From: a virus
Taxonomy: Duplodnaviria > Heunggongvirae > Uroviricota > Caudoviricetes
Virus record (IMG/VR): IMGVR_UViG_2579779009_000005
Direction: 5' to 3' (one strand)
DNA: 45,234 bases
Positions within the stretch are counted from its first letter, which is position 1. The number at the start of each line of letters is the position of its first letter. The translations under genes were made by a program, and so were the position numbers. Positions 2,055 through 45,234 of this stretch are shown here, in pieces. The notes under the pieces are model-generated. The model had not been told where the DNA came from. It saw nothing but the letters and a program-made list of their open reading frames with translations, and ran no database searches.

Positions 2055-4532
2055 TTATGGGTAGATGGCGTCGCTATATTCCGCGACGGTCAGAGATACC
2101 GTGTTATCTGTGTTCGGCTTGATGCTGTTGACCGTCCATAGCTGGCTGTTCAGCTCCTCCACCGTTGCTATGAGGTAGCGCGACGGGAGCTGTACATTGT
2201 CTCCGTTCCAGATATTGAGTTGAATGTCGGGTATTGCCGCGGTGAATCCGTACTTAGTGTCGGCGCGTGTCGTCGCCGGATAGCGCAGAGTCGGGTTGCC
2301 CAGGCTGTCGGTCACCAGGACATACATCGAGCCGGTAAACGCGATCGGCTCGCTTGTATCAAAGTTATTCCCGGCGCGGCCGGTGATGTATCCCTGCTGC
2401 TGGTTACTGTCGTAGATATCCGCAATCTGCACGACGCTACCGACCTGCATGATCCCGTCCTCAAATACTTTGGCGTTCATCTTCACCCGGGAGTAGATAA
2501 GGCGCTTCGTTTCGCGCAGTGCGCGTTCCCGCGCCTGATACTCGTTACGAAATCCGACTATCTCGATTATGTTCGGGTTCTCCGCTTCCTGCTCGACGAT
2601 AGCGCCGTTCAGCACGCGGTAGTTGATGTACGTCTTGTTGTTCGTGGTTGGATGAACGTAGGACACCTGCACGCCGTCGTAGCCGCCAGGAAGAGTGGCC
2701 TCGTACGTCATTTTGTACTCGTCCGTCTTCATGTTGGCCCGGTTGAATACGGCAGCCGGGTAATCAACCTTCTGATCGCGAGTAAAAGTCAGCACGCCGT
2801 CATCCCAGTACGCAATGACTGACGCTGCATTGCAGATCGCCTGCACGCGGTCGCCGAGAGAATCGTTCTCGTCGTCAAACGTGTAGTCGAAGTAACCCAG
2901 GCGCTCATCCGGCAGACTTTCGGCAATCGAGTACAGTCCGTACAGGTCAATGCTACTTACCGGCTGCTCGCCCATAATCAGCCAGGTATGCGCCACTGCA
3001 TCAGCGAACGAGCGCGAGGCCCTAAGGGTGTAATCCACCGCCTGCGTCGTCAGGTTGTAACTGATGGTTTGGCGCGTCACCAGGGCGTTGTATTTGCGAT
3101 CACGACTGCCCAGCGCGTTCTCTGTCGCTCTTACCTTCACGCGCACCAGCGTATCGGTTGGATGCACGACGTTGGTTCTGACGTTGACCGAGTGGATCTC
3201 CTCAACCTTCAGGATAGAGGCATCACTCGAGTTATCTGTGCGCTGGAAGTTAATAGCGTACTTGCCGAAACCGCCGGTCGGCGTCAGCTTGTCAGTGCGA
3301 TAAAACACTTCGCTGGATGATTTGTGCGGCGTCCCCTGGTGATACGTGAACGTCTGCTGAGTACCCGGCACCTGGTTGTAGTCATCGTCAATTTTCCAGA
3401 TTGTGACCTTCCAGTCAGCGGACTTTTTGCCGCCCAGCTGCACCTGAGTGTGCAGCCATAACTGGGCAGATTCGACCGGCGAGAAGAACGGGCCTACCAC
3501 TAGCGCTTCGTTATCGTTAAGGATGAACTTCGTCGTGTTAATAGTCGCCGTTGCCGGCACGTCAGGAGGGCCAATTAGATCCCCCATCGTGAATGTGTAC
3601 CACCGGACCGGGTTAACCACCGCGCCGTCGTTTGTTTCGACAGCCGATATCAGCGTGCCGGAGAAATCGACATCCTGCGTTACGTTGCCGGTTGGCGTGC
3701 TGTAGGTGACGTTAATCGTAAAAGTAACGGCGTGCGGCAGGACCAGGCCCATGAAGTAATCAAACTCAGCCTGCTTGATAATTTTTACCGCAATCTGCCC
3801 GCCGGAGTATGTGCCGCTAACAACCGTGGTGGCCGTAGCAGTCTCGATCGGGAAATTGTCCGATTCGTTTTGCCCGGGCACCTCCTGGCCATCCACGTCG
3901 TCGAAACCGTACCCTTCGTTGATGGTGGGTATCACTTCCCCCGGCTGGTAAAACTGGAACTCTGCACCGGCCATACTTCCAAGGCTGGACTCTGAATAAC
4001 GCACAGACTCGTAATCATATTTGCCGATCCCGATGCACATCCACTCAGTAACGTACTTCAGGCCGCCATCCGTGTCGCTCTGGCGCACGTATTCGAACAG
4101 TGATTCCTGAATCAGGTCCGGGAACGAACGGATTTGCCCGTAGATGTCCGGCTTTGCTTTGTAGACGCGCGCCGTATTCGTCTGACCGGTCAGGCTATTG
4201 TTTGGCGAGTCAATCGTGTTGCCGCCTGTGTTGGCGATCGCCGGCTTGGGAGCAAGGAACGAGAAGACCGCGCCGACAACTTTGAAAATAGGGCTGAGAA
4301 TGTCGCCAATAATGCCCTTTGGCTGGTCGAAAATCTGGATGGTGTCCAGTTCGCATAGCTCAAACGCCAGCTCATCATCTTCGCCCAGCTTTACGCCGTT
4401 GCGGACGATCAGCAGATCGCGGTGAAAGTTACCATCATTGGCCGCCAGCCAATCATAAAAAAGGGTGCCGTTTGGCACCCTGCAACGCAGCTTAGGCGTT
4501 CCTGGAAAATTTGATATCTCAACCAGCGCCAT
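2055..4532 (-). CDS. Tail tip / host specificity protein (J-like)
   Basis: 825-aa ORF downstream of the minor tail and NlpC/P60 genes, in the position of lambda J. Named from size and synteny only. Confidence 0.6.
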   Translation of the reverse strand: MALVEISNFPGTPKLRCRVPNGTLFYDWLAANDGNFHRDLLIVRNGVKLGEDDELAFELCELDTIQIFDQPKGIIGDILSPIFKVVGAVFSFLAPKPAIANTGGNTIDSPNNSLTGQTNTARVYKAKPDIYGQIRSFPDLIQESLFEYVRQSDTDGGLKYVTEWMCIGIGKYDYESVRYSESSLGSMAGAEFQFYQPGEVIPTINEGYGFDDVDGQEVPGQNESDNFPIETATATTVVSGTYSGGQIAVKIIKQAEFDYFMGLVLPHAVTFTINVTYSTPTGNVTQDVDFSGTLISAVETNDGAVVNPVRWYTFTMGDLIGPPDVPATATINTTKFILNDNEALVVGPFFSPVESAQLWLHTQVQLGGKKSADWKVTIWKIDDDYNQVPGTQQTFTYHQGTPHKSSSEVFYRTDKLTPTGGFGKYAINFQRTDNSSDASILKVEEIHSVNVRTNVVHPTDTLVRVKVRATENALGSRDRKYNALVTRQTISYNLTTQAVDYTLRASRSFADAVAHTWLIMGEQPVSSIDLYGLYSIAESLPDERLGYFDYTFDDENDSLGDRVQAICNAASVIAYWDDGVLTFTRDQKVDYPAAVFNRANMKTDEYKMTYEATLPGGYDGVQVSYVHPTTNNKTYINYRVLNGAIVEQEAENPNIIEIVGFRNEYQARERALRETKRLIYSRVKMNAKVFEDGIMQVGSVVQIADIYDSNQQQGYITGRAGNNFDTSEPIAFTGSMYVLVTDSLGNPTLRYPATTRADTKYGFTAAIPDIQLNIWNGDNVQLPSRYLIATVEELNSQLWTVNSIKPNTDNTVSLTVAEYSDAIYP

Positions 4533-35739: not shown

Positions 35740-35945
35740 TGTCGCACTACGGAACTACACCGCTCATTCGCCAGTGCGTCACGCCCGGCATGATGGCAAT
35801 GCATGAAGGCCGAACCTATCGCGTCTCAGCAGTCATTCAGGAGCGCAAATGGGTGTACCTGCACACCGATGCAGAAATCATACGCCTCAGTGACTGCGTG
35901 ATTGACGTCCTTCTGGACGGTCACGGCAACCCTATCCAGCACTAA
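35736..35945 (+). CDS. Small hypothetical protein (69 aa)
   Basis: Translationally coupled to the upstream small ORF. Confidence 0.4.
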   Translation: MMSHYGTTPLIRQCVTPGMMAMHEGRTYRVSAVIQERKWVYLHTDAEIIRLSDCVIDVLLDGHGNPIQH

Positions 35946-36015
35946 CTACCCTATTCAACCGATCGGCCTGGCTTTCTGCGGGCGGGATCTGCACATCCAA
36001 ATTTCAGGAGAAACC

Positions 36016-36984
36016 ATGAGAGAAATAACGGACTTAACTGTCATCGAAATCAAGCCGGAACAGGCGCCAGTGCTTTACGTATCGGGCGGCCTTGACACTT
36101 ATCTCGAGCAAATCCGCCAGGCAGTAAACGAAGTGCCGGACCTGTCCACGAAGAAAGGCCGTGACCGTGTCGCCTCTCTGGCGGCGCAGGTGTCCCGCAG
36201 CAAGACGGCAATTGAAAAGCCGGGCCGTGAGTACCTGAAGCGCCTGAAAGAAGCTGTGCGTCCAGCTGAGACCGAAATTAAGCGTTTCGTTGATGCCTGT
36301 GACGAGTTGCGTGATTCGACCCGCCGCCCACTCACCGAATGGGAAGCCGAGCAGGATCGCATTAAGGCTGAGGAAGCCATGAACGCGCTGCACGCCGAAG
36401 CGCTGGAGATGAACGAAGAATTCGACCGCCAGCGTGCCGCGAAAATCGAAGCAGACCACGAAATGGCTCTGCTGATGAATGACGCTTTCGACCGTGACCG
36501 CGAAGAGAAGCGCCGCCAGGAAGAACAGGCCCAGCGTGAGCACGAAGAGCGCATTAAGCGCGAAGCGGCAGAACAAGCCCGCCGCGATGCAGAAGCGAAG
36601 CACAAAGCGGAGATTGAAGCCGCAGCGCGTCGCGAAGTTGAAGAGAAAGCTCGCGCAGATGCCGCAGAGCGTAAGCGCAAAGAAGACGCTGACCGTGCAG
36701 AACGCGAGAAGCAGGATGCCATCGCAGAAGAAAAACGCAAAGCGCAGGAAGAAGCAGATCGCATCAAGCGTGAAGCTGAAGCGAAAGAAAAAGCCCGTCT
36801 GGCCGAAGAGCAGCGCAAAGCGGAAGAAGAAGCGCGCCGCGCAGCTGACAAAGAGCACCGCCGCACCGTCAACCGTCGTGTCTACGCAGACCTGATTGCT
36901 CAGGGCATCCCAGAAGAATTCGCACAGAAAGCAGTGCTGGCGATCGCTGGCGGCAAAGTGCAGGACGCGCACATCAAATATTGA
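36016..36984 (+). CDS. Hypothetical protein with long K/E/R-rich charged helical repeat region
   Basis: Start revised to MREITDL (RBS aggag). The C-terminal ~200 aa is an extreme E/K/R/A repeat (EEKRRQEEQAQREHEERIKREAAEQARRDAEAKHKAE...). Confidence 0.5.
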   Translation: MREITDLTVIEIKPEQAPVLYVSGGLDTYLEQIRQAVNEVPDLSTKKGRDRVASLAAQVSRSKTAIEKPGREYLKRLKEAVRPAETEIKRFVDACDELRDSTRRPLTEWEAEQDRIKAEEAMNALHAEALEMNEEFDRQRAAKIEADHEMALLMNDAFDRDREEKRRQEEQAQREHEERIKREAAEQARRDAEAKHKAEIEAAARREVEEKARADAAERKRKEDADRAEREKQDAIAEEKRKAQEEADRIKREAEAKEKARLAEEQRKAEEEARRAADKEHRRTVNRRVYADLIAQGIPEEFAQKAVLAIAGGKVQDAHIKY

Positions 36985-38140: not shown

Positions 38141-38817
38141 CACCAGAAATTATCCTGACCAGGACCGGCATTGACGTAACCACTATCCAACAGGGCGATG
38201 AGGCGTGGCACCGGCTGCGTCTCGGCGTCATTACTGCCTCTGAAGTGCATAACGTTATTTCCAAGCCGCGTTCCGGCACCAAATGGACGGGCATGAAGAT
38301 GTCCTACTTCCACACCCTGCTCGCCGAGGTATGCACTGGCGTAGCGCCAGAGGTTAACGCCAAGGCGCTGTCCTGGGGGAAGCAGTATGAGGAAGACGCC
38401 CGCACTCTCTTCGAGTTCACCACCGACGTGAAAGTCACGGAGTCTCCGATCCTGTTCCGTGACGAGAGCATGCGCACCGCGTGCTCCCCTGACGGCCTTT
38501 GCAGTAACAATTTCGGCCTAGAGCTGAAATGCCCGTTCACCTCCCGCGACTTTATGAAATTCCGCCTCGGCGGTTTCGAAGCCATTAAGTCCGAGTACAT
38601 GGCCCAGGTGCAGTACAGCATGTGGGTTACCGGAAAAGACGCCTGGTTTTTTGCCAACTATGACCCCCGCATGAAACGCGAAGGCATTCATCATGTCGTC
38701 GTTGAGCGGGATCCGCAGTACATGTCCGATTTCAACGAAATGGTGCCGGAGTTCATCGAGAAGATGGACGAAGCGCTGGCGGAAATCGGCTTCACGTTCG
38801 GGGAGCAGTGGAAATGA
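38137..38817 (+). CDS. exo: Lambda-type exonuclease (Red alpha)
   Basis: Near-collinear with remembered lambda Exo along its whole length ([65 protein letters not shown]). Confidence 0.9.
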
Positions 38818-39242
38818 AACGCACACCATTCTACCGCAGGCCCGGGCGAACCGGGCAATTCTCCGGCCTCCGTGAGCGCGTTATCTGGATGATTCAGACG
38901 CGCGGCCGCCCGGTCACCGGCAGCGAAATCGCTGAGAAGTTTGGAGTATCGCTCATTGAGTTTAACCGTGTCGCCAACGGCATTACCCGCGGCGCCGGAC
39001 AAATAGCGCAGATCGTTGAGTCTGAAAAATGGCTCAACGAGGACGGTATCTGCGACCGGACTTTCGACCTGGTCACGAAGCCAAAGGTTGTAACGCCGCA
39101 AGGTAAATCGCGGTTGTTCACCCGGCGCGCCATAGAGCAGTCGCAAGAAGGCAGGCGGCAGGAGTGCATAGCGCGTGCCGCACGTCGTCGCCGACTGATT
39201 GCTCAGGGCCTCTACATCGACGAAATGGAGTCAGTGCTATGA
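38814..39242 (+). CDS. Hypothetical protein with putative winged-helix segment
   Basis: 142 aa, ATGA-coupled to exo. Basic termini. Confidence 0.45.
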
Positions 39243-39406
39243 AAGCGTGGTCACTCGAAGAGCTTGCGCTGCTATGGCGGCACTCAAACGCTGAAGTCGC
39301 GGAGATTACTGGCCGCAGCATTAAAGAAGTCGGAGATAAGCGGCTGCAAACCAATACAGCGCGTAATGGCTGGGATGTTAACGATCCGGAGCGGGAGGAT
39401 GCATGA
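39239..39406 (+). CDS. Small hypothetical protein (55 aa), HTH-like
   Basis: [31 protein letters not shown]... Coupled at both ends. The tabulated ORF 39164..39406 is the same frame with an earlier start. Confidence 0.4.
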   Translation: MKAWSLEELALLWRHSNAEVAEITGRSIKEVGDKRLQTNTARNGWDVNDPEREDA

Positions 39407-40464
39407 ACAAAGTAGGCGATTATTTCTTCGAGTTTCCGGCGTCGCGCGGCATGCAGGGTGGCACGGCGACTTACATGATTACGGCACCTGCCCGCGCGTT
39501 GACGCGCATACTTGCCTCCGACAATCACGGCAGCACGCTCGAGCGTTCTCAACGCGAAATTAACCAGGCGCGAGTGAAGAAGTTTTACCAGTACCTCGTC
39601 AATGCATACCAAAATAAAGAGCCCTTCATCATCCCGCCGCTGGTCGGTAACTGCGACGCGGATATTGAGTTTGAAGAGTTCGGCAATACGAATGTTGGCG
39701 TCGCACGCTTCCCGATGGATGCGGTTATTAAGCTGTTCGACGGGCAGCACCGCGCCGCCGGGCTGGAGGAGTTCTGCCGGACATACGGAGAGCCGATCAG
39801 CATCCCATTAATGCTGACCCATAACCTCCCGCTGAAGGCGCGCCAGCAGTTCTTCTCGGATATCAACAACAACGTGTCAAAACCCTCCGCCGCGATCAAC
39901 ATGGCCTATGACGGGCGTAATGATGTGGCCCAAGGGATGGTCACGTTCCTGTCTCAGCACGACACCTTCGCTGAGGTGACTGACTTTGAGCACAACGTCG
40001 TTCCTGCGAAAAGTAAGCTGTGGGTGAGCTTCAAGGCGCTGAGCGACGCGACGGCCAAGTTTGCCAGCGCAGGCAATAAGCCTCTGGAAATGGGCGATAT
40101 CGAATCCATCTGGGAGGCCTGGTTAGCCCTGACGCAGATCGAGGCGATTCGCCACGGCACCAGCCAAGCAGACTACAAGCGCGACTACATTCAGTTCCAC
40201 GCAGTGATGATTAACGCCTTCGGCTATGCCGTTCAGCGGCTGATGGCTGACCACTCAATCGTCGATATCGTCCAGATGATTGAGGATCTGGCAAGCAATG
40301 CGGGCTCCTCTGAGATGGAAGACTTCTTCCTGATTGCTCGGTGGGGTGGCGTCTGTGTTAACGCCGAAAAAGACCGCCCAACGATAATTGCCTCCGTTCC
40401 GGCGCAGAAATCAGCTGCTGAGCGGCTCGTCAAAGTTATCCTGGCACAAAGCCTCGGGGAATAG
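39403..40464 (+). CDS. DGQHR-domain protein (DndB-like, ParB-fold)
   Basis: Exact DGQHR motif (KLFDGQHRAAGLEEF) in a 353-aa protein. ATGA-coupled to the upstream gene. Confidence 0.6.
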   Translation: MNKVGDYFFEFPASRGMQGGTATYMITAPARALTRILASDNHGSTLERSQREINQARVKKFYQYLVNAYQNKEPFIIPPLVGNCDADIEFEEFGNTNVGVARFPMDAVIKLFDGQHRAAGLEEFCRTYGEPISIPLMLTHNLPLKARQQFFSDINNNVSKPSAAINMAYDGRNDVAQGMVTFLSQHDTFAEVTDFEHNVVPAKSKLWVSFKALSDATAKFASAGNKPLEMGDIESIWEAWLALTQIEAIRHGTSQADYKRDYIQFHAVMINAFGYAVQRLMADHSIVDIVQMIEDLASNAGSSEMEDFFLIARWGGVCVNAEKDRPTIIASVPAQKSAAERLVKVILAQSLGE

Positions 40465-40466
40465 TT

Positions 40467-40931
40467 ATGACAATGCAGATGCACTCAATGCCCTGGCCTG
40501 AATCTCAGGCCATTTTTTTGTCCAAAACTTATCTGTACATGGATATGGATGAACTGTGCACAACGTTACAGCGCACCAAAGCGTCTATCCAGATGAAGGC
40601 CAGCAGCATGGGTCTTTACCGCTGCGGGAAGTTAACCCTCGACGATCTCCAGCTGATTGAAGCCCTGCTTGATGCCGGTCTTGAGTATGCTGTTATCGCC
40701 AGAAAGTTCGAACTCTCCAAGCCTCAGCTAATGAGGGTTCTGGAAACGGTAGCCTTTCATTGCGATATCTGCGGCACATTCTCCGCGTCTATGCGTTCCT
40801 CTTACTGGAAATTCGACGGAGAGCCGCAAAGGACTTATAGCTGCTGTCCGGCGTGTTGCCGAGCGATGGTTGAAAGCTTTAACGCAGGACACGACGGGCC
40901 GTTGCTGGCACGCAGACGGGAGGCGGCATGA
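40467..40931 (+). CDS. Hypothetical protein with HTH-like segment and C-terminal zinc ribbon
   Basis: 154 aa with C-terminal CDIC...CCPACC. Starts 3 nt after the DGQHR stop and is ATGA-coupled to the methyltransferase. Confidence 0.45.
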   Translation: MTMQMHSMPWPESQAIFLSKTYLYMDMDELCTTLQRTKASIQMKASSMGLYRCGKLTLDDLQLIEALLDAGLEYAVIARKFELSKPQLMRVLETVAFHCDICGTFSASMRSSYWKFDGEPQRTYSCCPACCRAMVESFNAGHDGPLLARRREAA

Positions 40932-41587
40932 CCGAGAAATACGCTCTTATCTACGCTGATCCGCCCTGGTCTTACGGCAACACCATCAGCAACGGCACCG
41001 CTGCCGACCACTACTCCACCATGAAGCTCATCGACATAAAGCGCCTGCCGGTTTGGGAGCTGGCTGCCGAAAACGCGGTGCTGGCGATGTGGTACACCGG
41101 CACGCATAACCAGGAAGCGATAGAGCTGGCCGAAGCCTGGGGATTTACAGTTCGTACGATGAAGGGCTTTACCTGGGTGAAGCTGAATCAGAACGCGGAA
41201 TTGCGCATCAACAAGGCGCTGGTCGAGGGTGAAATCACCGACTTTTACGACTTCCTCGATTTGCTTAACGCCGAGACGCGCATGAATGGCGGCAACCACA
41301 CCCGGGCCAATACCGAAGATCTGCTGATTGCTACCCGAGGCGCCGGGCTGGAACGAAAGCACGCCGGGATTAAGCAGGTTGTCTACAGCCCGCTCGGCGC
41401 GCACAGCGAAAAGCCGTGGGAAGTGCGCCACCGGCTGGAACTGCTATACGGCGATGTGCCGCGCATTGAATTATTCAGCCGCAGCGGGGCGCCAGGCTGG
41501 CATCACTGGGGAAATCAGTGCGCTACCGCCGCGGTAGAACTGCTGCCAGGCTGCGCCATTGATGTTGTGAAAACGGAGGCCGCATGA
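40928..41587 (+). CDS. MT-A70 family DNA N6-adenine methyltransferase (orphan)
   Basis: DPPW catalytic motif near the N-terminus (YALIYADPPWSYGN). 219 aa. No adjacent restriction endonuclease candidate. Confidence 0.7.
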   Translation: MTEKYALIYADPPWSYGNTISNGTAADHYSTMKLIDIKRLPVWELAAENAVLAMWYTGTHNQEAIELAEAWGFTVRTMKGFTWVKLNQNAELRINKALVEGEITDFYDFLDLLNAETRMNGGNHTRANTEDLLIATRGAGLERKHAGIKQVVYSPLGAHSEKPWEVRHRLELLYGDVPRIELFSRSGAPGWHHWGNQCATAAVELLPGCAIDVVKTEAA

Positions 41588-41802
41588 CGCCAGAAACAGA
41601 CAACGCCATCCGCGCCGCCTGCCGTCGCTGCACCGAGGAAATCCAGCAGGCCATGCGCAAGAAGCCAAAGCCAAACTGGAACGAAACTGTGCCTCCCATC
41701 ATCAACAAGCATCACAAGAAAATTGAAGCTCTGGTAGTTAGCCTCCTGGAGTTCGTCGTATACACAGGTCGGCTTAATCGCCGCTTCGGAGCAGAACAAT
41801 GA
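41584..41802 (+). CDS. Small hypothetical protein (72 aa)
   Basis: ATGA-coupled to the methyltransferase stop. Confidence 0.4.
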   Translation: MTPETDNAIRAACRRCTEEIQQAMRKKPKPNWNETVPPIINKHHKKIEALVVSLLEFVVYTGRLNRRFGAEQ

Positions 41803-43810: not shown

Positions 43811-44076
43811 TTTCCCTTTGCGGGCACAACAGTGGGCACAAATTTCCTCACATCGACAAATTCTTTTATATCCCCTGTGGTTACATTGCCTGTATGATGT
43901 CTGCAGGGGACACCATTTATCAGTTCGCTCCCATCCGTACCAGTCCGCAAAATCCCCTGAATATCAAGACTTCCGTAGATTCACAGTTCGTAATGGTTCG
44001 CGTCAGCTCGTTTACAGCCGCACTCCATGACGGGTAAAAAGTGGATAAAATAATTTTACCCACCGGATTTTTACCC

Positions 44077-45234
44077 ATGCTGACCGTTAAGCAGATTGAA
44101 GCAGCAAAGCCGAAAGAAAAACCATACCGACTACTCGATGGTAATGGCCTGTACCTTTATGTCCCTGTGTCAGGGAAAAAGGTATGGCAGCTTCGCTACA
44201 AGATTGACGGTAAGGAGAAAATCCTGACTGTCGGAAAATATCCGCTTATGACTTTGCAGGAGGCGAGGGATAAGGCATGGACTGCGAGGAAAGACATCTC
44301 GGTTGGCATCGATCCGGTAAAGGCGAAAAAGGCTTCGTCTAACAACAATTCCTTTAGTGCAATATACAAGGAATGGTACGAGCACAAGAAGCAAGTCTGG
44401 TCAGTAGGCTATGCAACTGAACTTGCAAAAATGTTTGATGACGACATTTTACCCATCATCAGCGGTCTTGAGATTCAGGATATTGAGCCGATGCAACTGC
44501 TGGAAGTAATCCGCAGATTTGAAGATCGCGGTGCAATGGAGCGAGCAAATAAAGCCCGCAGAAGATGCGGCGAGGTTTTCCGTTACGCTATTGTCACTGG
44601 TAGGGCTAAATATAACCCGGCACCTGACCTTGCTGACGCCATGAAGAGATACCGCAAGAAGAACTTCCCGTTTCTTCCTGCAGACCAGATCCCTGCATTC
44701 AACAAAGCACTGGCAACATTTTCAGGAAGTATCGTATCGCTCATTGCGACCAAAGTTTTACGCTACACTGCCCTAAGAACGAAAGAGCTTCGTTCCATGC
44801 TATGGAAGAACGTCGATTTTGAAAACAGGATTATCACCATCGACGCCAGTGTGATGAAGAGCCGCAAGATTCATGTAGTACCGATGTCAGACCAGGTGGT
44901 TGAACTTCTCACTAAGCTAAGCTCAATCACCAAACCAGTATCAGAGTTTGTTTTTGCCGGGCGCAACGATAAGAAGAAGCCAATCTGCGAGAATGCGGTA
45001 CTGCTTGTGATCAAACAAATCGGCTATGAAGGTCTGGAAAGCGGTCACGGATTCAGGCATGAATTCAGCACGATTATGAACGAGCACGAATGGCCTGCTG
45101 ACGCTATTGAAGTGCAACTGGCACATGCCAACGGCGGATCTGTGCGCGGGATTTACAACCATGCTCAGTATCTAGATAAGCGCAGAGAAATGATGCAGTG
45201 GTGGGCGGACTGGCTTGATGGAAAAGTGGAGTAA
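44077..45234 (+). CDS. int: Tyrosine integrase, P4-type (N-terminal arm-binding domain)
   Basis: N-terminus LTVKQIEAAKPKEKPYRLLDGNGLYLYV, C-terminal catalytic region with HGFRHEF and a terminal Tyr-containing segment. ATG at 44077 preferred over the tabulated GTG at 44041. Complete gene ending at the last base of the window. Confidence 0.85.
   Translation: MLTVKQIEAAKPKEKPYRLLDGNGLYLYVPVSGKKVWQLRYKIDGKEKILTVGKYPLMTLQEARDKAWTARKDISVGIDPVKAKKASSNNNSFSAIYKEWYEHKKQVWSVGYATELAKMFDDDILPIISGLEIQDIEPMQLLEVIRRFEDRGAMERANKARRRCGEVFRYAIVTGRAKYNPAPDLADAMKRYRKKNFPFLPADQIPAFNKALATFSGSIVSLIATKVLRYTALRTKELRSMLWKNVDFENRIITIDASVMKSRKIHVVPMSDQVVELLTKLSSITKPVSEFVFAGRNDKKKPICENAVLLVIKQIGYEGLESGHGFRHEFSTIMNEHEWPADAIEVQLAHANGGSVRGIYNHAQYLDKRREMMQWWADWLDGKVE

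Follow-up and report, generated by a model that had tools for sequence, protein, structure and literature searches.

The region lies in an E. coli lambdoid prophage of HK639/phi80-like type, where it forms a mosaic part of the early-left operon (pL-type); the window comprises 45,234 nucleotides, given as one strand. Upstream lie GamL, Bet/RecT and a lambda-exonuclease-family gene, in keeping with the initial annotation, which placed the genes of interest downstream of the Red genes. The features listed next are all on the plus strand. The first, annotated as a 'regulator', is a PNB-2-like winged-HTH protein (38814–39242; phrog_1680, E 5e-77; a RefSeq CDS in strain M10), followed by hyp55, a 55-aa ORF of phrog_11492 and of unknown function (39239–39406). 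Next come the three ORFs that had been called from the sequence and that our analysis recovers unchanged: a 353-aa DGQHR-domain/DndB-family protein (39403–40464), the 154-aa ORF2 with HTH and zinc-ribbon segments (40467–40931), and a 219-aa MT-A70-family N6-adenine methyltransferase (40928–41587). A 72-aa ORF of phrog_303, function unknown, follows at 41584–41802.

The start and stop codons of the three ORFs overlap or nearly abut, as had been claimed. ATGA overlaps join hyp55 to DGQHR, ORF2 to MT-A70, and MT-A70 to the next gene, while the TAG of DGQHR is separated from the ATG of ORF2 by 2 nt. What does not stand is the special meaning given to these junctions: ATGA overlaps preceded by GGAGG also occur at flanking operon genes, and nearly every early-left gene is joined in this way. 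Coupling therefore belongs to the whole operon and not specifically to DGQHR, ORF2 and MT-A70, and translational coupling was ruled out as functional evidence. A sequence scan found no internal sigma-70 promoter for the three genes. A profile check of the neighbours found no nuclease-family protein adjoining them, as the initial annotation had also concluded for restriction endonucleases. As for a Type II restriction-modification system, the cognate endonuclease is absent beside the methyltransferase, and the PADLOC matches are to methyltransferase models only.

The DGQHR protein belongs to the TIGR03187 DGQHR family (211.9 bits, cutoff 58.85) and to Pfam DndB, PF14072 (169.2 bits, cutoff 29.1). 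Its exact DGQHR motif, at residues 113–117, is invariant in 42 homologues and in phage homologues down to 29% identity. Scores above both cutoffs, together with this invariance, show that the motif is genuine and not coincidental. The N-terminal region has a ParB/Srx fold and constitutes a putative NTP-binding domain; the C-terminal half consists entirely of helices and matches neither HNH/DUF1524 nor PD-(D/E)xK. Sequence comparison gives no relatives of solved structure, and Foldseek returned nothing significant with the models of either this protein or ORF2. The protein shares with DndB (TIGR03233/PF14072) its Pfam family, the DGQHR motif, and the combination of a ParB/Srx-fold N-domain with a helical C-terminal half. 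In contrast to DndB proper, it reaches only 125.9 bits against the TIGR03233 equivalog (cutoff 328 bits), its neighbours are phage early genes with no adjacent dndCDE or dndA/iscS, and it has a dedicated Myb/HTH-zinc-ribbon partner gene of a kind not described for dnd loci. The original description was 'DndB/DpdB-like'. DpdB carries DGQQR, not DGQHR, as well as an SspE-like C-domain (PMC10164549), and neither an adjacent DpdA gene nor preQ0 pathway genes are present here.

ORF2 consists of a Myb-like/GcrA-N-like HTH at residues ~7–52, a second HTH at ~54–97, and a C-terminal CxxC...CCPxCC zinc ribbon at 97–140. Its cysteines, in CDIC (99–102) and CCPACC (126–131), are invariant among ORF2 homologues; the HTH-type segments and ribbon noted initially are upheld. 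ORF2 itself has no Pfam match above threshold and is assigned to phrog_323 (E 6e-15); relatives of its N-terminal module score as Myb_DNA-binding, GcrA or Sigma70_r4, with those that carry multiple repeats matching Myb_DNA-binding at E 2e-41. The AF2 model (pLDDT 69.7) gives only weak HTH-regulator fold matches. While the N-terminal module recurs as a repeat in 584 proteins, a search of 5.8 billion proteins gives just 9 clusters for ORF2, and essentially a single cluster at 50% identity, out of 1.8 billion, has its full-length architecture.

The methyltransferase is a clear MT-A70 family member, as proposed (PF05063, 84.5 bits, gathering threshold 23.9), with its catalytic DPPW at residues 11–14 within the segment IYADPPWSY (8–16). 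It also matches PADLOC MTase_II (173.9 bits) and phrog_359 (E 1e-99), and its nearest solved structures are of the METTL3/METTL4/MTA1 type. The enzyme is 45% identical to gp5 of phage phiPA8, the M.EcoGV-like M.EcoPA8orf6770P (E 4e-61), relative to which it carries an insertion of ~25 residues, and the protein encoded at 38814–39242, beyond the coordinates given in the initial annotation, is 54% identical to phiPA8 gp6/PNB-2 (E 2e-53). Homologues of both holoenzyme subunits are therefore present. PNB-2 is the proven partner subunit of M.EcoPA8orf6770P, with which, as reported for phiPA8 only, it forms a 1:1 complex that prefers 16S rRNA (PMC10810198). By homology to phiPA8, the MT-A70 enzyme described here probably works with the PNB-2-like protein, and it may act on GATC-type DNA sites, on 16S rRNA, or on both. 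The two phages agree in operon region and gene order, with PNB-2 located 5′ of the methyltransferase (PMC10810198), and a terminator-like element precedes the methyltransferase-proximal gene in both. Unlike in phiPA8, where the PNB-2 and methyltransferase genes overlap, hyp55, DGQHR and ORF2 intervene here (~1.7 kb), although all remain within one operon. The annotation of this enzyme as a simple orphan DNA methylase is corrected: its closest characterised relative has a PNB-2 subunit and a preference for 16S rRNA (PMC10810198), and a PNB-2 homologue is present here. No similarity was found between ORF2 and PNB-2, or between DGQHR and PNB-1 (gp7), and equating either pair was rejected.

The three consecutive genes had been presented as a coupled functional triad. 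The triad does recur in further prophage contigs, from E. coli and of the Enterobacter type, so that the refuting condition set initially, a lack of co-occurrence outside this genome, does not apply. A background control nevertheless argues against coupling. The control sample comprises 72 usable sister prophage loci anchored on the upstream regulator gene, with methyltransferases counted within 5 genes. A methyltransferase follows the PNB-2-like regulator in 71 of the 72, namely in 64/65 loci without DGQHR and in 7/7 with it (Fisher p = 1). Methyltransferase families are distributed similarly in the two groups, with Dam in 33, MT-A70 in 27, D12 in 2 and N6_N4 in 2 of the loci without DGQHR, and Dam in 4, MT-A70 in 2 and N6_N4 in 1 of those with it. 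In this lineage, methyltransferase occupancy of the slot is independent of DGQHR. Any of MT-A70, phage Dam (PF05869) or N6_N4+C5 methyltransferases can follow the DGQHR+ORF2 pair, and this swapping of families 3′ of DGQHR seemed strong proof of a functional link until it failed the background control. Phage HK639 has the regulator, hyp55 and an MT-A70 enzyme 94.5% identical to the one described here, without DGQHR and ORF2; hyp55 is a backbone gene. The 72-aa ORF is likewise a backbone gene, since it lies 3′ of the methyltransferase in most sister loci whatever the family of the enzyme. Sister phages also place a DpdA-like transglycosylase (phrog_887) or extra methyltransferases in the same slot, which can therefore be described as a DNA-modification island. 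The DpdA-like gene shares the slot with DGQHR but never co-occurs with it in the loci examined, and the pairing of DGQHR with a phage DpdA, in the role of DpdB, was rejected on this ground and on that of the differing motif.

These results also bear on a dedicated modification module, in which DGQHR, as an NTPase, and ORF2, as a DNA reader, would serve the downstream methyltransferase as accessory subunits or as regulators. Such a module would be the unfused equivalent of prophage ParB-methyltransferase fusions and would resemble the service of DpdB's ATPase to DpdA; by loading on, opening or scanning DNA, the two proteins would let any base-flipping enzyme act on phage DNA more quickly or at selected positions. 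The fusions have in common with the present locus a ParB-fold NTP-binding domain that is encoded on phage DNA in association with methyltransferases, N6_N4 and MT-A70 among them (PMC12704722). They differ in that the proteins here are separate ORFs with ORF2 between them, the ParB fold is of the DndB/DGQHR type, and the association is facultative. The independence of methyltransferase presence and type from DGQHR in the sole lineage with a measurable background, the occurrence of the HK639 enzyme without the two genes, and a characterised MT-A70 homologue that uses PNB-2 and not a DGQHR protein all make the module unlikely. Further against it, the commonest DGQHR genes of E. coli and Klebsiella have no methyltransferase within ~4 kb.

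ORF2 is tied to DGQHR instead. Among 2.9 million viral contigs, a scan anchored on ORF2 finds DGQHR or a DGQHR remnant upstream in 20/20 ORF2 loci, and in the background set ORF2 follows DGQHR in 7/7. As ORF2 is seen only directly 3′ of DGQHR, it is the second gene of an optional cassette. A counterpoint is that a methyltransferase lies downstream of ORF2 in 20/20 loci too (Dam in nine, MT-A70 in seven, N6_N4+C5 in four), and the allegiance of ORF2 to DGQHR rather than to the methyltransferase is carried by only two out-of-lineage loci, L064 and L202. At L064, a zinc-ribbon-only ORF2 homologue follows DGQHR with no methyltransferase present. C9, an alternative partner of DGQHR, is an ORF2 homologue by hhalign (probability 93%, E 3e-7) and falls in the same phrog_323 (E 1e-34); it is found solely after DGQHR in the loci sampled and is not flagged in the background set. 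On a Vibrio plasmid, a phrog_323 Myb-like protein (E 3e-8) overlaps the stop codon of a DGQHR gene whose product is 34% identical, while ORF2 itself has no match on plasmids. Further alternative neighbours (C4, C12, C31 and C36) have no Pfam names. Many DGQHR genes of the Rac/DLP12 and SPN1S types lack an adjacent HTH partner, so that the partner is not needed universally.

Our preferred reading, to which we give a probability of roughly 55%, is that the locus contains two separable units, a conserved backbone and an independent, optional DGQHR+ORF2 cassette that probably functions as an NTP-gated DNA-binding switch within a DNA-modification island. The backbone comprises the PNB-2-like protein, a small ORF, the methyltransferase slot (here filled by MT-A70) and the 72-aa ORF. 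The two-gene cassette (39403–40931) is inserted directly 5′ of whichever methyltransferase fills the slot and would act independently of any particular one. The DGQHR protein would provide a ParB/Srx-fold NTP-binding switch akin to DndB. Canonical ParB proteins carry a sequence-reading DNA-binding domain in cis; ORF2 would supply the corresponding Myb/HTH and zinc-ribbon domain to the DGQHR protein in a putative complex. Straight after infection or induction, the two proteins would bind DNA in an NTP-gated manner, where they may regulate or protect DNA-modification and establishment functions. Precedents are consistent with such a switch. DndB represses a DNA-modification operon as a negative regulator whose DNA binding is modulated by ATP (PMC4507180, PMC10853773), with the dnd promoter as its site (PMC4507180). 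Both ATP and GTP are bound by a DndB-like protein (PMC12704722), and HerB, a ParB-like early leading-region protein, reprograms host transcription (PMC13370423). In HerB/YfjB and the leading-region anti-defence islands of conjugative plasmids, the ParB-like NTP-binding protein is among the first products made when the element enters (PMC13370423, PMC11541004), and its neighbours are orphan methyltransferases, SSB, PsiA/B and anti-restriction genes, the same ones as around distant DGQHR relatives. HerB differs in having its own HTH and dimerisation module and in binding CTP, whereas the DGQHR protein has no HTH and would rely, if at all, on a separately encoded one; the comparison concerns fold type, timing of expression and gene neighbours.

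A more specific role, which we regard as rather improbable, would make DGQHR+ORF2 a portable modification helper. GcrA senses m6A, and an NTP-driven ParB-fold clamp combined with a Myb/GcrA-like, possibly m6A-sensing reader could boost or direct a downstream base-flipping enzyme, with five methyltransferase families found among the downstream DNA-modifying enzymes. If true, the pair would stand to the unexplained prophage ParB-methyltransferase fusions as an unfused counterpart, and its function would parallel that of DpdB towards DpdA.

The wider distribution of DGQHR genes extends the separation from methyltransferases beyond the sister loci. Homologues occur in 320/5,426 complete E. coli genomes (~6%), most without a methyltransferase nearby; the complete triad is present in 2 of these, and the majority class in E. 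coli is DUF1317-DGQHR-TraR. In a Klebsiella-type clade, 25/27 DGQHR loci have no methyltransferase at +1/+2. About half of the ~19 distinct DGQHR context types have one at most three genes away, which exceeds the naive expectation, so that some functional synergy with methyltransferases may exist. Non-dnd genes of the DGQHR/DndB family are also found in many Salmonella, Klebsiella, Enterobacter and Vibrio prophages. Distant relatives reside in plasmid/ICE anti-restriction islands, next to PsiA, an antirestriction protein (PF03230), ArdC-N, SSB, RadC and DUF4942, and also adjoin orphan Dam/D12/C5 methyltransferases.

This distribution can be read as that of an anti-defence factor with no connection to the methyltransferase beside it. 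It would be a phage or plasmid DndB mimic, first expressed on entry and directed against host defences with ParB-fold or DNA-backbone/base-modification components, of the Dnd, Ssp, Dpd or DUF262/GmrSD type, whose operons it would repress, whose partners it would titrate, or against which it would mask DNA. A wide but patchy occurrence is expected of an accessory arms-race gene, and the gene lies among first-expressed regions, both in the early-left operon beside Gam/Bet/Exo and in the plasmid/ICE islands, which are enriched in anti-defence genes (PMC11541004); homology to DndB, which negatively regulates PT modification (PMC4507180), fits as well. Yet Dnd/Dpd systems are a minority in hosts while the gene occurs in ~6% of E. 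coli genomes, repression of a defence system's modification half would bring a phage no obvious gain, and the DGQHR protein is labelled only 'DndB' by PADLOC and matches no anti-defence family. We consider this a doubtful account. The initial suggestion of self-modification or anti-restriction is plausible for the gene island, though not for a three-subunit system.

The same genes could in principle act on behalf of the resident prophage, with DGQHR as an exclusion or defence effector, a ParB/Srx-fold NTPase or nuclease like Osa or the DUF262 N-domains that attacks or starves competing incoming DNA while the methyltransferase marks self. The protein has no nuclease domain, as its all-helical C-terminal half indicates, and its gene, which lies in the repressed early-left operon and has no promoter-like site close to it, should be silent in the lysogen. 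Moreover, the partner methyltransferases swap specificity between A and C methylases, which self-marking would not tolerate, and many DGQHR copies lack any methyltransferase. An effector of this kind is very improbable.

The two-unit reading recasts the triad as a two-protein problem, with a private Myb/HTH-zinc-ribbon partner, a DNA-modification island and no fixed methyltransferase. It also draws attention to DGQHR/DndB-family genes outside dnd loci, which are common in mobile elements, and bears on why ParB-fold NTP switches recur beside DNA-modifying enzymes in phages. We found no paper on phage DGQHR proteins, in line with the initial view that the arrangement is uncharacterised.

A terminator-like hairpin lies at 40494–40519, 27 nt into ORF2, with an 8-bp stem and a 3-nt loop followed by T7 (~ −13 kcal/mol). 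It is kept in 12/13 distinct homologue sequences, all at least 88% identical, so that RNA structure is inseparable from coding constraint and no usable covariation exists; its candidacy as a conserved RNA element was set aside for this reason. The hairpin may serve as an attenuator that phage antitermination reads through, or may simply reflect the codons for WPESQAIFL.

The three-part system first proposed for positions 39403-41587 (+ strand) is not what is present there. The best-supported picture is of two separable units in a DNA-modification island: a backbone (Unit A) that would comprise a PNB-2-like protein and a methyltransferase, and an optional insert (Unit B) that would comprise a DGQHR protein and a Myb/HTH-zinc-ribbon protein. 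The three open reading frames are themselves exactly as the initial annotation had them, namely a 353-aa DGQHR-domain protein (39403-40464, +), the 154-aa ORF2 (40467-40931, +), and a 219-aa methyltransferase (40928-41587, +) for which the MT-A70 family and the DPPW motif are confirmed. With 211.9 bits against TIGR03187 (cutoff 58.85) and 169 bits against Pfam DndB, the first is a genuine DGQHR-domain protein; on the true-DndB equivalog it gets just 125.9 bits against a cutoff of 328. The window is a lambdoid prophage of the HK639/phi80 type, with the three genes in the early-left operon downstream of the Red genes as claimed (GamL, Bet/RecT and a lambda-exonuclease-family gene lie upstream), and no nuclease is found among their neighbours, in keeping with the reported lack of an adjacent restriction endonuclease. 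The region is 100% identical in E. coli M10 and one water isolate.

For 80 IMG/VR loci collected for relatives of the DGQHR protein, the downstream genes were clustered. After DGQHR, either directly or past a small protein in between, come methyltransferases from five Pfam families with no relation to one another (MT-A70, phage Dam PF05869, N6_N4 PF01555, D12 PF02086 and C5 PF00145). A methyltransferase comes after DGQHR in 46 of the 53 loci with a DGQHR identity of at least 71%, and the same adjacency occurs in Salmonella podophage SPN1S and Vibrio phage Va_PF430-3_p42 (33% identity). As strong evidence of a functional link, this diversity is undone by a control set of 80 loci anchored on the upstream regulator gene with DGQHR status ignored. 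In the 72 control loci with enough downstream sequence, a methyltransferase lies within five genes in 64/65 without DGQHR versus 7/7 with it (Fisher p = 1), and the mix of methyltransferase families is the same in both groups. Phage HK639 has the order regulator, 55-aa ORF, MT-A70, its methyltransferase being 94.5% identical to that of the window, and carries neither DGQHR nor ORF2. As such, the slot is constitutively filled by a methyltransferase in this lineage, while DGQHR with ORF2 is one of several optional upstream inserts. The claim of a coupled triad therefore falls: the three genes do co-occur in two complete E. coli genomes, but methyltransferase occupancy in this lineage is independent of DGQHR and only ORF2 is linked to it. 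Since the other inserts include a DpdA-like queuine tRNA-ribosyltransferase (phrog_887) and additional methyltransferases, the slot is a DNA-modification island. The DpdA-like protein (250 aa; phrog_887 E 6e-95, no Pfam hit) is encoded between the regulator and methyltransferase genes, in the place of DGQHR and ORF2, in 9/72 loci (for example L096, L097, L114-L116, L139 and L150) and is never seen together with DGQHR in the loci examined; its presence suggests 7-deazaguanine DNA modification in some sister prophages.

DGQHR has no need of an adjoining METHYLTRANSFERASE. Of the 5,426 complete genomes of E. coli, 320 have a homologue and only three the ORF2-bearing version. Most homologues are of the class DUF1317-DGQHR-TraR/DksA-DUF4222-excisionase, which is found in Rac/DLP12-like elements and lacks a methyltransferase. 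In a Klebsiella-type clade (69-70% identity), 25/27 loci have no methyltransferase at +1/+2, and most have none within ~4 kb. In 18/27 of these loci (L065-L087, L005 and L235 of Klebsiella-type prophages), the start of DGQHR is overlapped by a ParB/Spo0J-type gene with ParB_N and HTH_ParB, so that two ParB-fold genes stand in tandem in methyltransferase-free surroundings. About half of the ~19 distinct context types have a methyltransferase within three genes of DGQHR, and prophages carry ParB-methyltransferase fusions (PMC12704722), which together leave room for some residual functional synergy. A scan of GTDB species genomes with the DGQHR alignment, in which neighbours were classified, places relatives of 29-43% identity beside PsiA, an antirestriction protein (PF03230), ArdC-N/DUF3560, SSB, RadC, DUF4942 and ParA/KorB, beside RdgC, a Rv2179c-like exonuclease and a P2-type replication protein, and beside orphan Dam/D12/C5 methyltransferases. 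Such neighbours are typical of the leading regions of plasmids and ICEs and of the early regions of phages, which are known as anti-defence islands with many uncharacterised genes and orphan methyltransferases (PMC11541004).

The real unit is the DGQHR-ORF2 pair. ORF2 matches phrog_323 and no Pfam family; it is confined to 9 clusters in 5.8 billion proteins, and a profile search run exhaustively over 1.8 billion representatives places its full-length architecture in essentially one cluster. A search of the viral collection with ORF2 as anchor gave 20 loci, all with DGQHR directly upstream, in L221 as a 3′ remnant only. This locus (IMGVR_UViG_2751185931_000005, 2777-3462) keeps the last ~73 DGQHR codons before ORF2, a natural truncation with ORF2 and the N6_N4 and C5 methyltransferases retained. 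In eight other loci, ORF2 is replaced, in each case after DGQHR, by a 179-aa phrog_323 member, C9, homologous to ORF2 over two HTH modules (hhalign probability 93%, E 3e-7). Outside the lineage, a Vibrio plasmid carries a DGQHR gene (34% identity) whose stop is overlapped by the gene for an 89-aa phrog_323 Myb-like protein, and in L064, which has no methyltransferase, a zinc-ribbon-only ORF2 homologue follows DGQHR. The HTH-like segment and ribbon originally noted in ORF2 correspond to two HTH modules and a CDIC...CCPACC ribbon that is invariant among its few homologues. Its 45-residue N-terminal module is a repeat in 584 proteins that score as Myb_DNA-binding, GcrA-N and Sigma70_r4. From these HTH/Myb-type modules and the zinc ribbon, ORF2 is predicted to be a composite protein that binds DNA; the AF2 model is of moderate quality (pLDDT 69.7), with no more than weak matches to HTH regulators.

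While the linkage of ORF2 to DGQHR, the fold and the independence from the methyltransferase are direct observations, we infer NTP binding, complex formation, DNA binding and a biological role for Unit B by analogy with DndB, ParB/HerB and DpdB. Unit B would be an NTP-gated DNA-binding switch acting early after infection or induction, with ORF2 as its DNA reader encoded as a separate gene. HerB, a ParB-like leading-region protein, reprograms host transcription (PMC13370423). That the DGQHR gene is instead a defence or exclusion factor is unlikely, given a protein without a nuclease domain, a gene that lies in a repressed early operon and has nothing promoter-like close by, and neighbouring methylases of interchangeable specificity. 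The components fall into established families, and a relative of the neighbouring methyltransferase has been characterised; as the initial annotation supposed of the arrangement, we came across no paper on DGQHR proteins of phages or plasmids, nor on the DGQHR-phrog_323 pairing. DGQHR and ORF2 make up a widespread, unstudied pair of early genes that lends itself readily to experiment.

The MT-A70 enzyme of Stx phage phiPA8, M.EcoPA8orf6770P, which is described as closely resembling M.EcoGV, pairs 1:1 in a holoenzyme with PNB-2, encoded by the gene upstream, and prefers 16S rRNA; overproduced M.EcoGV methylates GATC in DNA (PMC10810198). The window methyltransferase is 45% identical to phiPA8 gp5 (E 4e-61) and the regulator (38814-39242, +) is 54% identical to PNB-2 (E 2e-53). 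A known relative of the METHYLTRANSFERASE of the window thus works with another partner, PNB-2; the homologue of this subunit, which for methyltransferases of this type is the partner backed by experiment, lies outside the three genes initially delimited. The same comparison with the phiPA8 proteins shows no relationship between ORF2 and PNB-2 or between DGQHR and PNB-1. Unlike in phiPA8, the 55-aa ORF (39239-39406) and the DGQHR-ORF2 cassette are inserted between the PNB-2-like and methyltransferase genes. In sister prophages the PNB-2-like gene precedes Dam-type (PF05869) as often as MT-A70 methyltransferases, so its product may have a broader role than PNB-2 has in phiPA8. Relative to gp5, the window MT-A70 has a ~25-residue insertion (residues ~92-118) that splits its Pfam match into two stretches.

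The overlapping or near-abutting codons said to join the three genes are real, but the same overlaps run from bet to the DUF551 gene. Junction sequences and RefSeq annotation give ATGA start/stop overlaps with a preceding GGAGG across bet, exo, the regulator, the 55-aa ORF, DGQHR, ORF2, MT-A70, a 72-aa ORF and the DUF551 gene, the sole exception being the 2-nt spacer between DGQHR and ORF2; translational coupling as a triad-specific sign is ruled out by this operon-wide pattern. Genes that replace one another without being related (ORF2, MT-A70, Dam, N6_N4 and others) have a conserved junction in common, GGAGGCNGCATGA, at 39396-39406, 40918-40931 and 41574-41587 and at the corresponding gene ends of L009-L168, which explains why many proteins of the region end in ...EAA*. 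The junction is probably a ribosome-binding site and recombination linker in one, driving module shuffling. Inside ORF2, 27 nt into the gene and over the conserved WPESQAIFL codons, lies a strong terminator-like hairpin, TGGCCTGAATCTCAGGCCA, followed by T7 (40494-40519, +; ~ -13 kcal/mol), which is kept in 12 of 13 distinct homologue sequences, all at least 88% identical. In phiPA8, a terminator occupies a comparable position upstream of the methyltransferase-proximal gene (PMC10810198).

The last long ORF of the window (44041-45234, +) is P4-type integrase-like and reaches the final base, and at the equivalent offset strain M10 has the host gene dsdC annotated; the window may therefore derive from the other 100%-identical genome, or its right-hand junction may differ from that of M10. 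Just upstream of GamL, a 360-aa ORF (35902-36984, +) with no significant Pfam match has an extremely charged, E/K/R/A-rich and probably coiled-coil C-terminal two-thirds.
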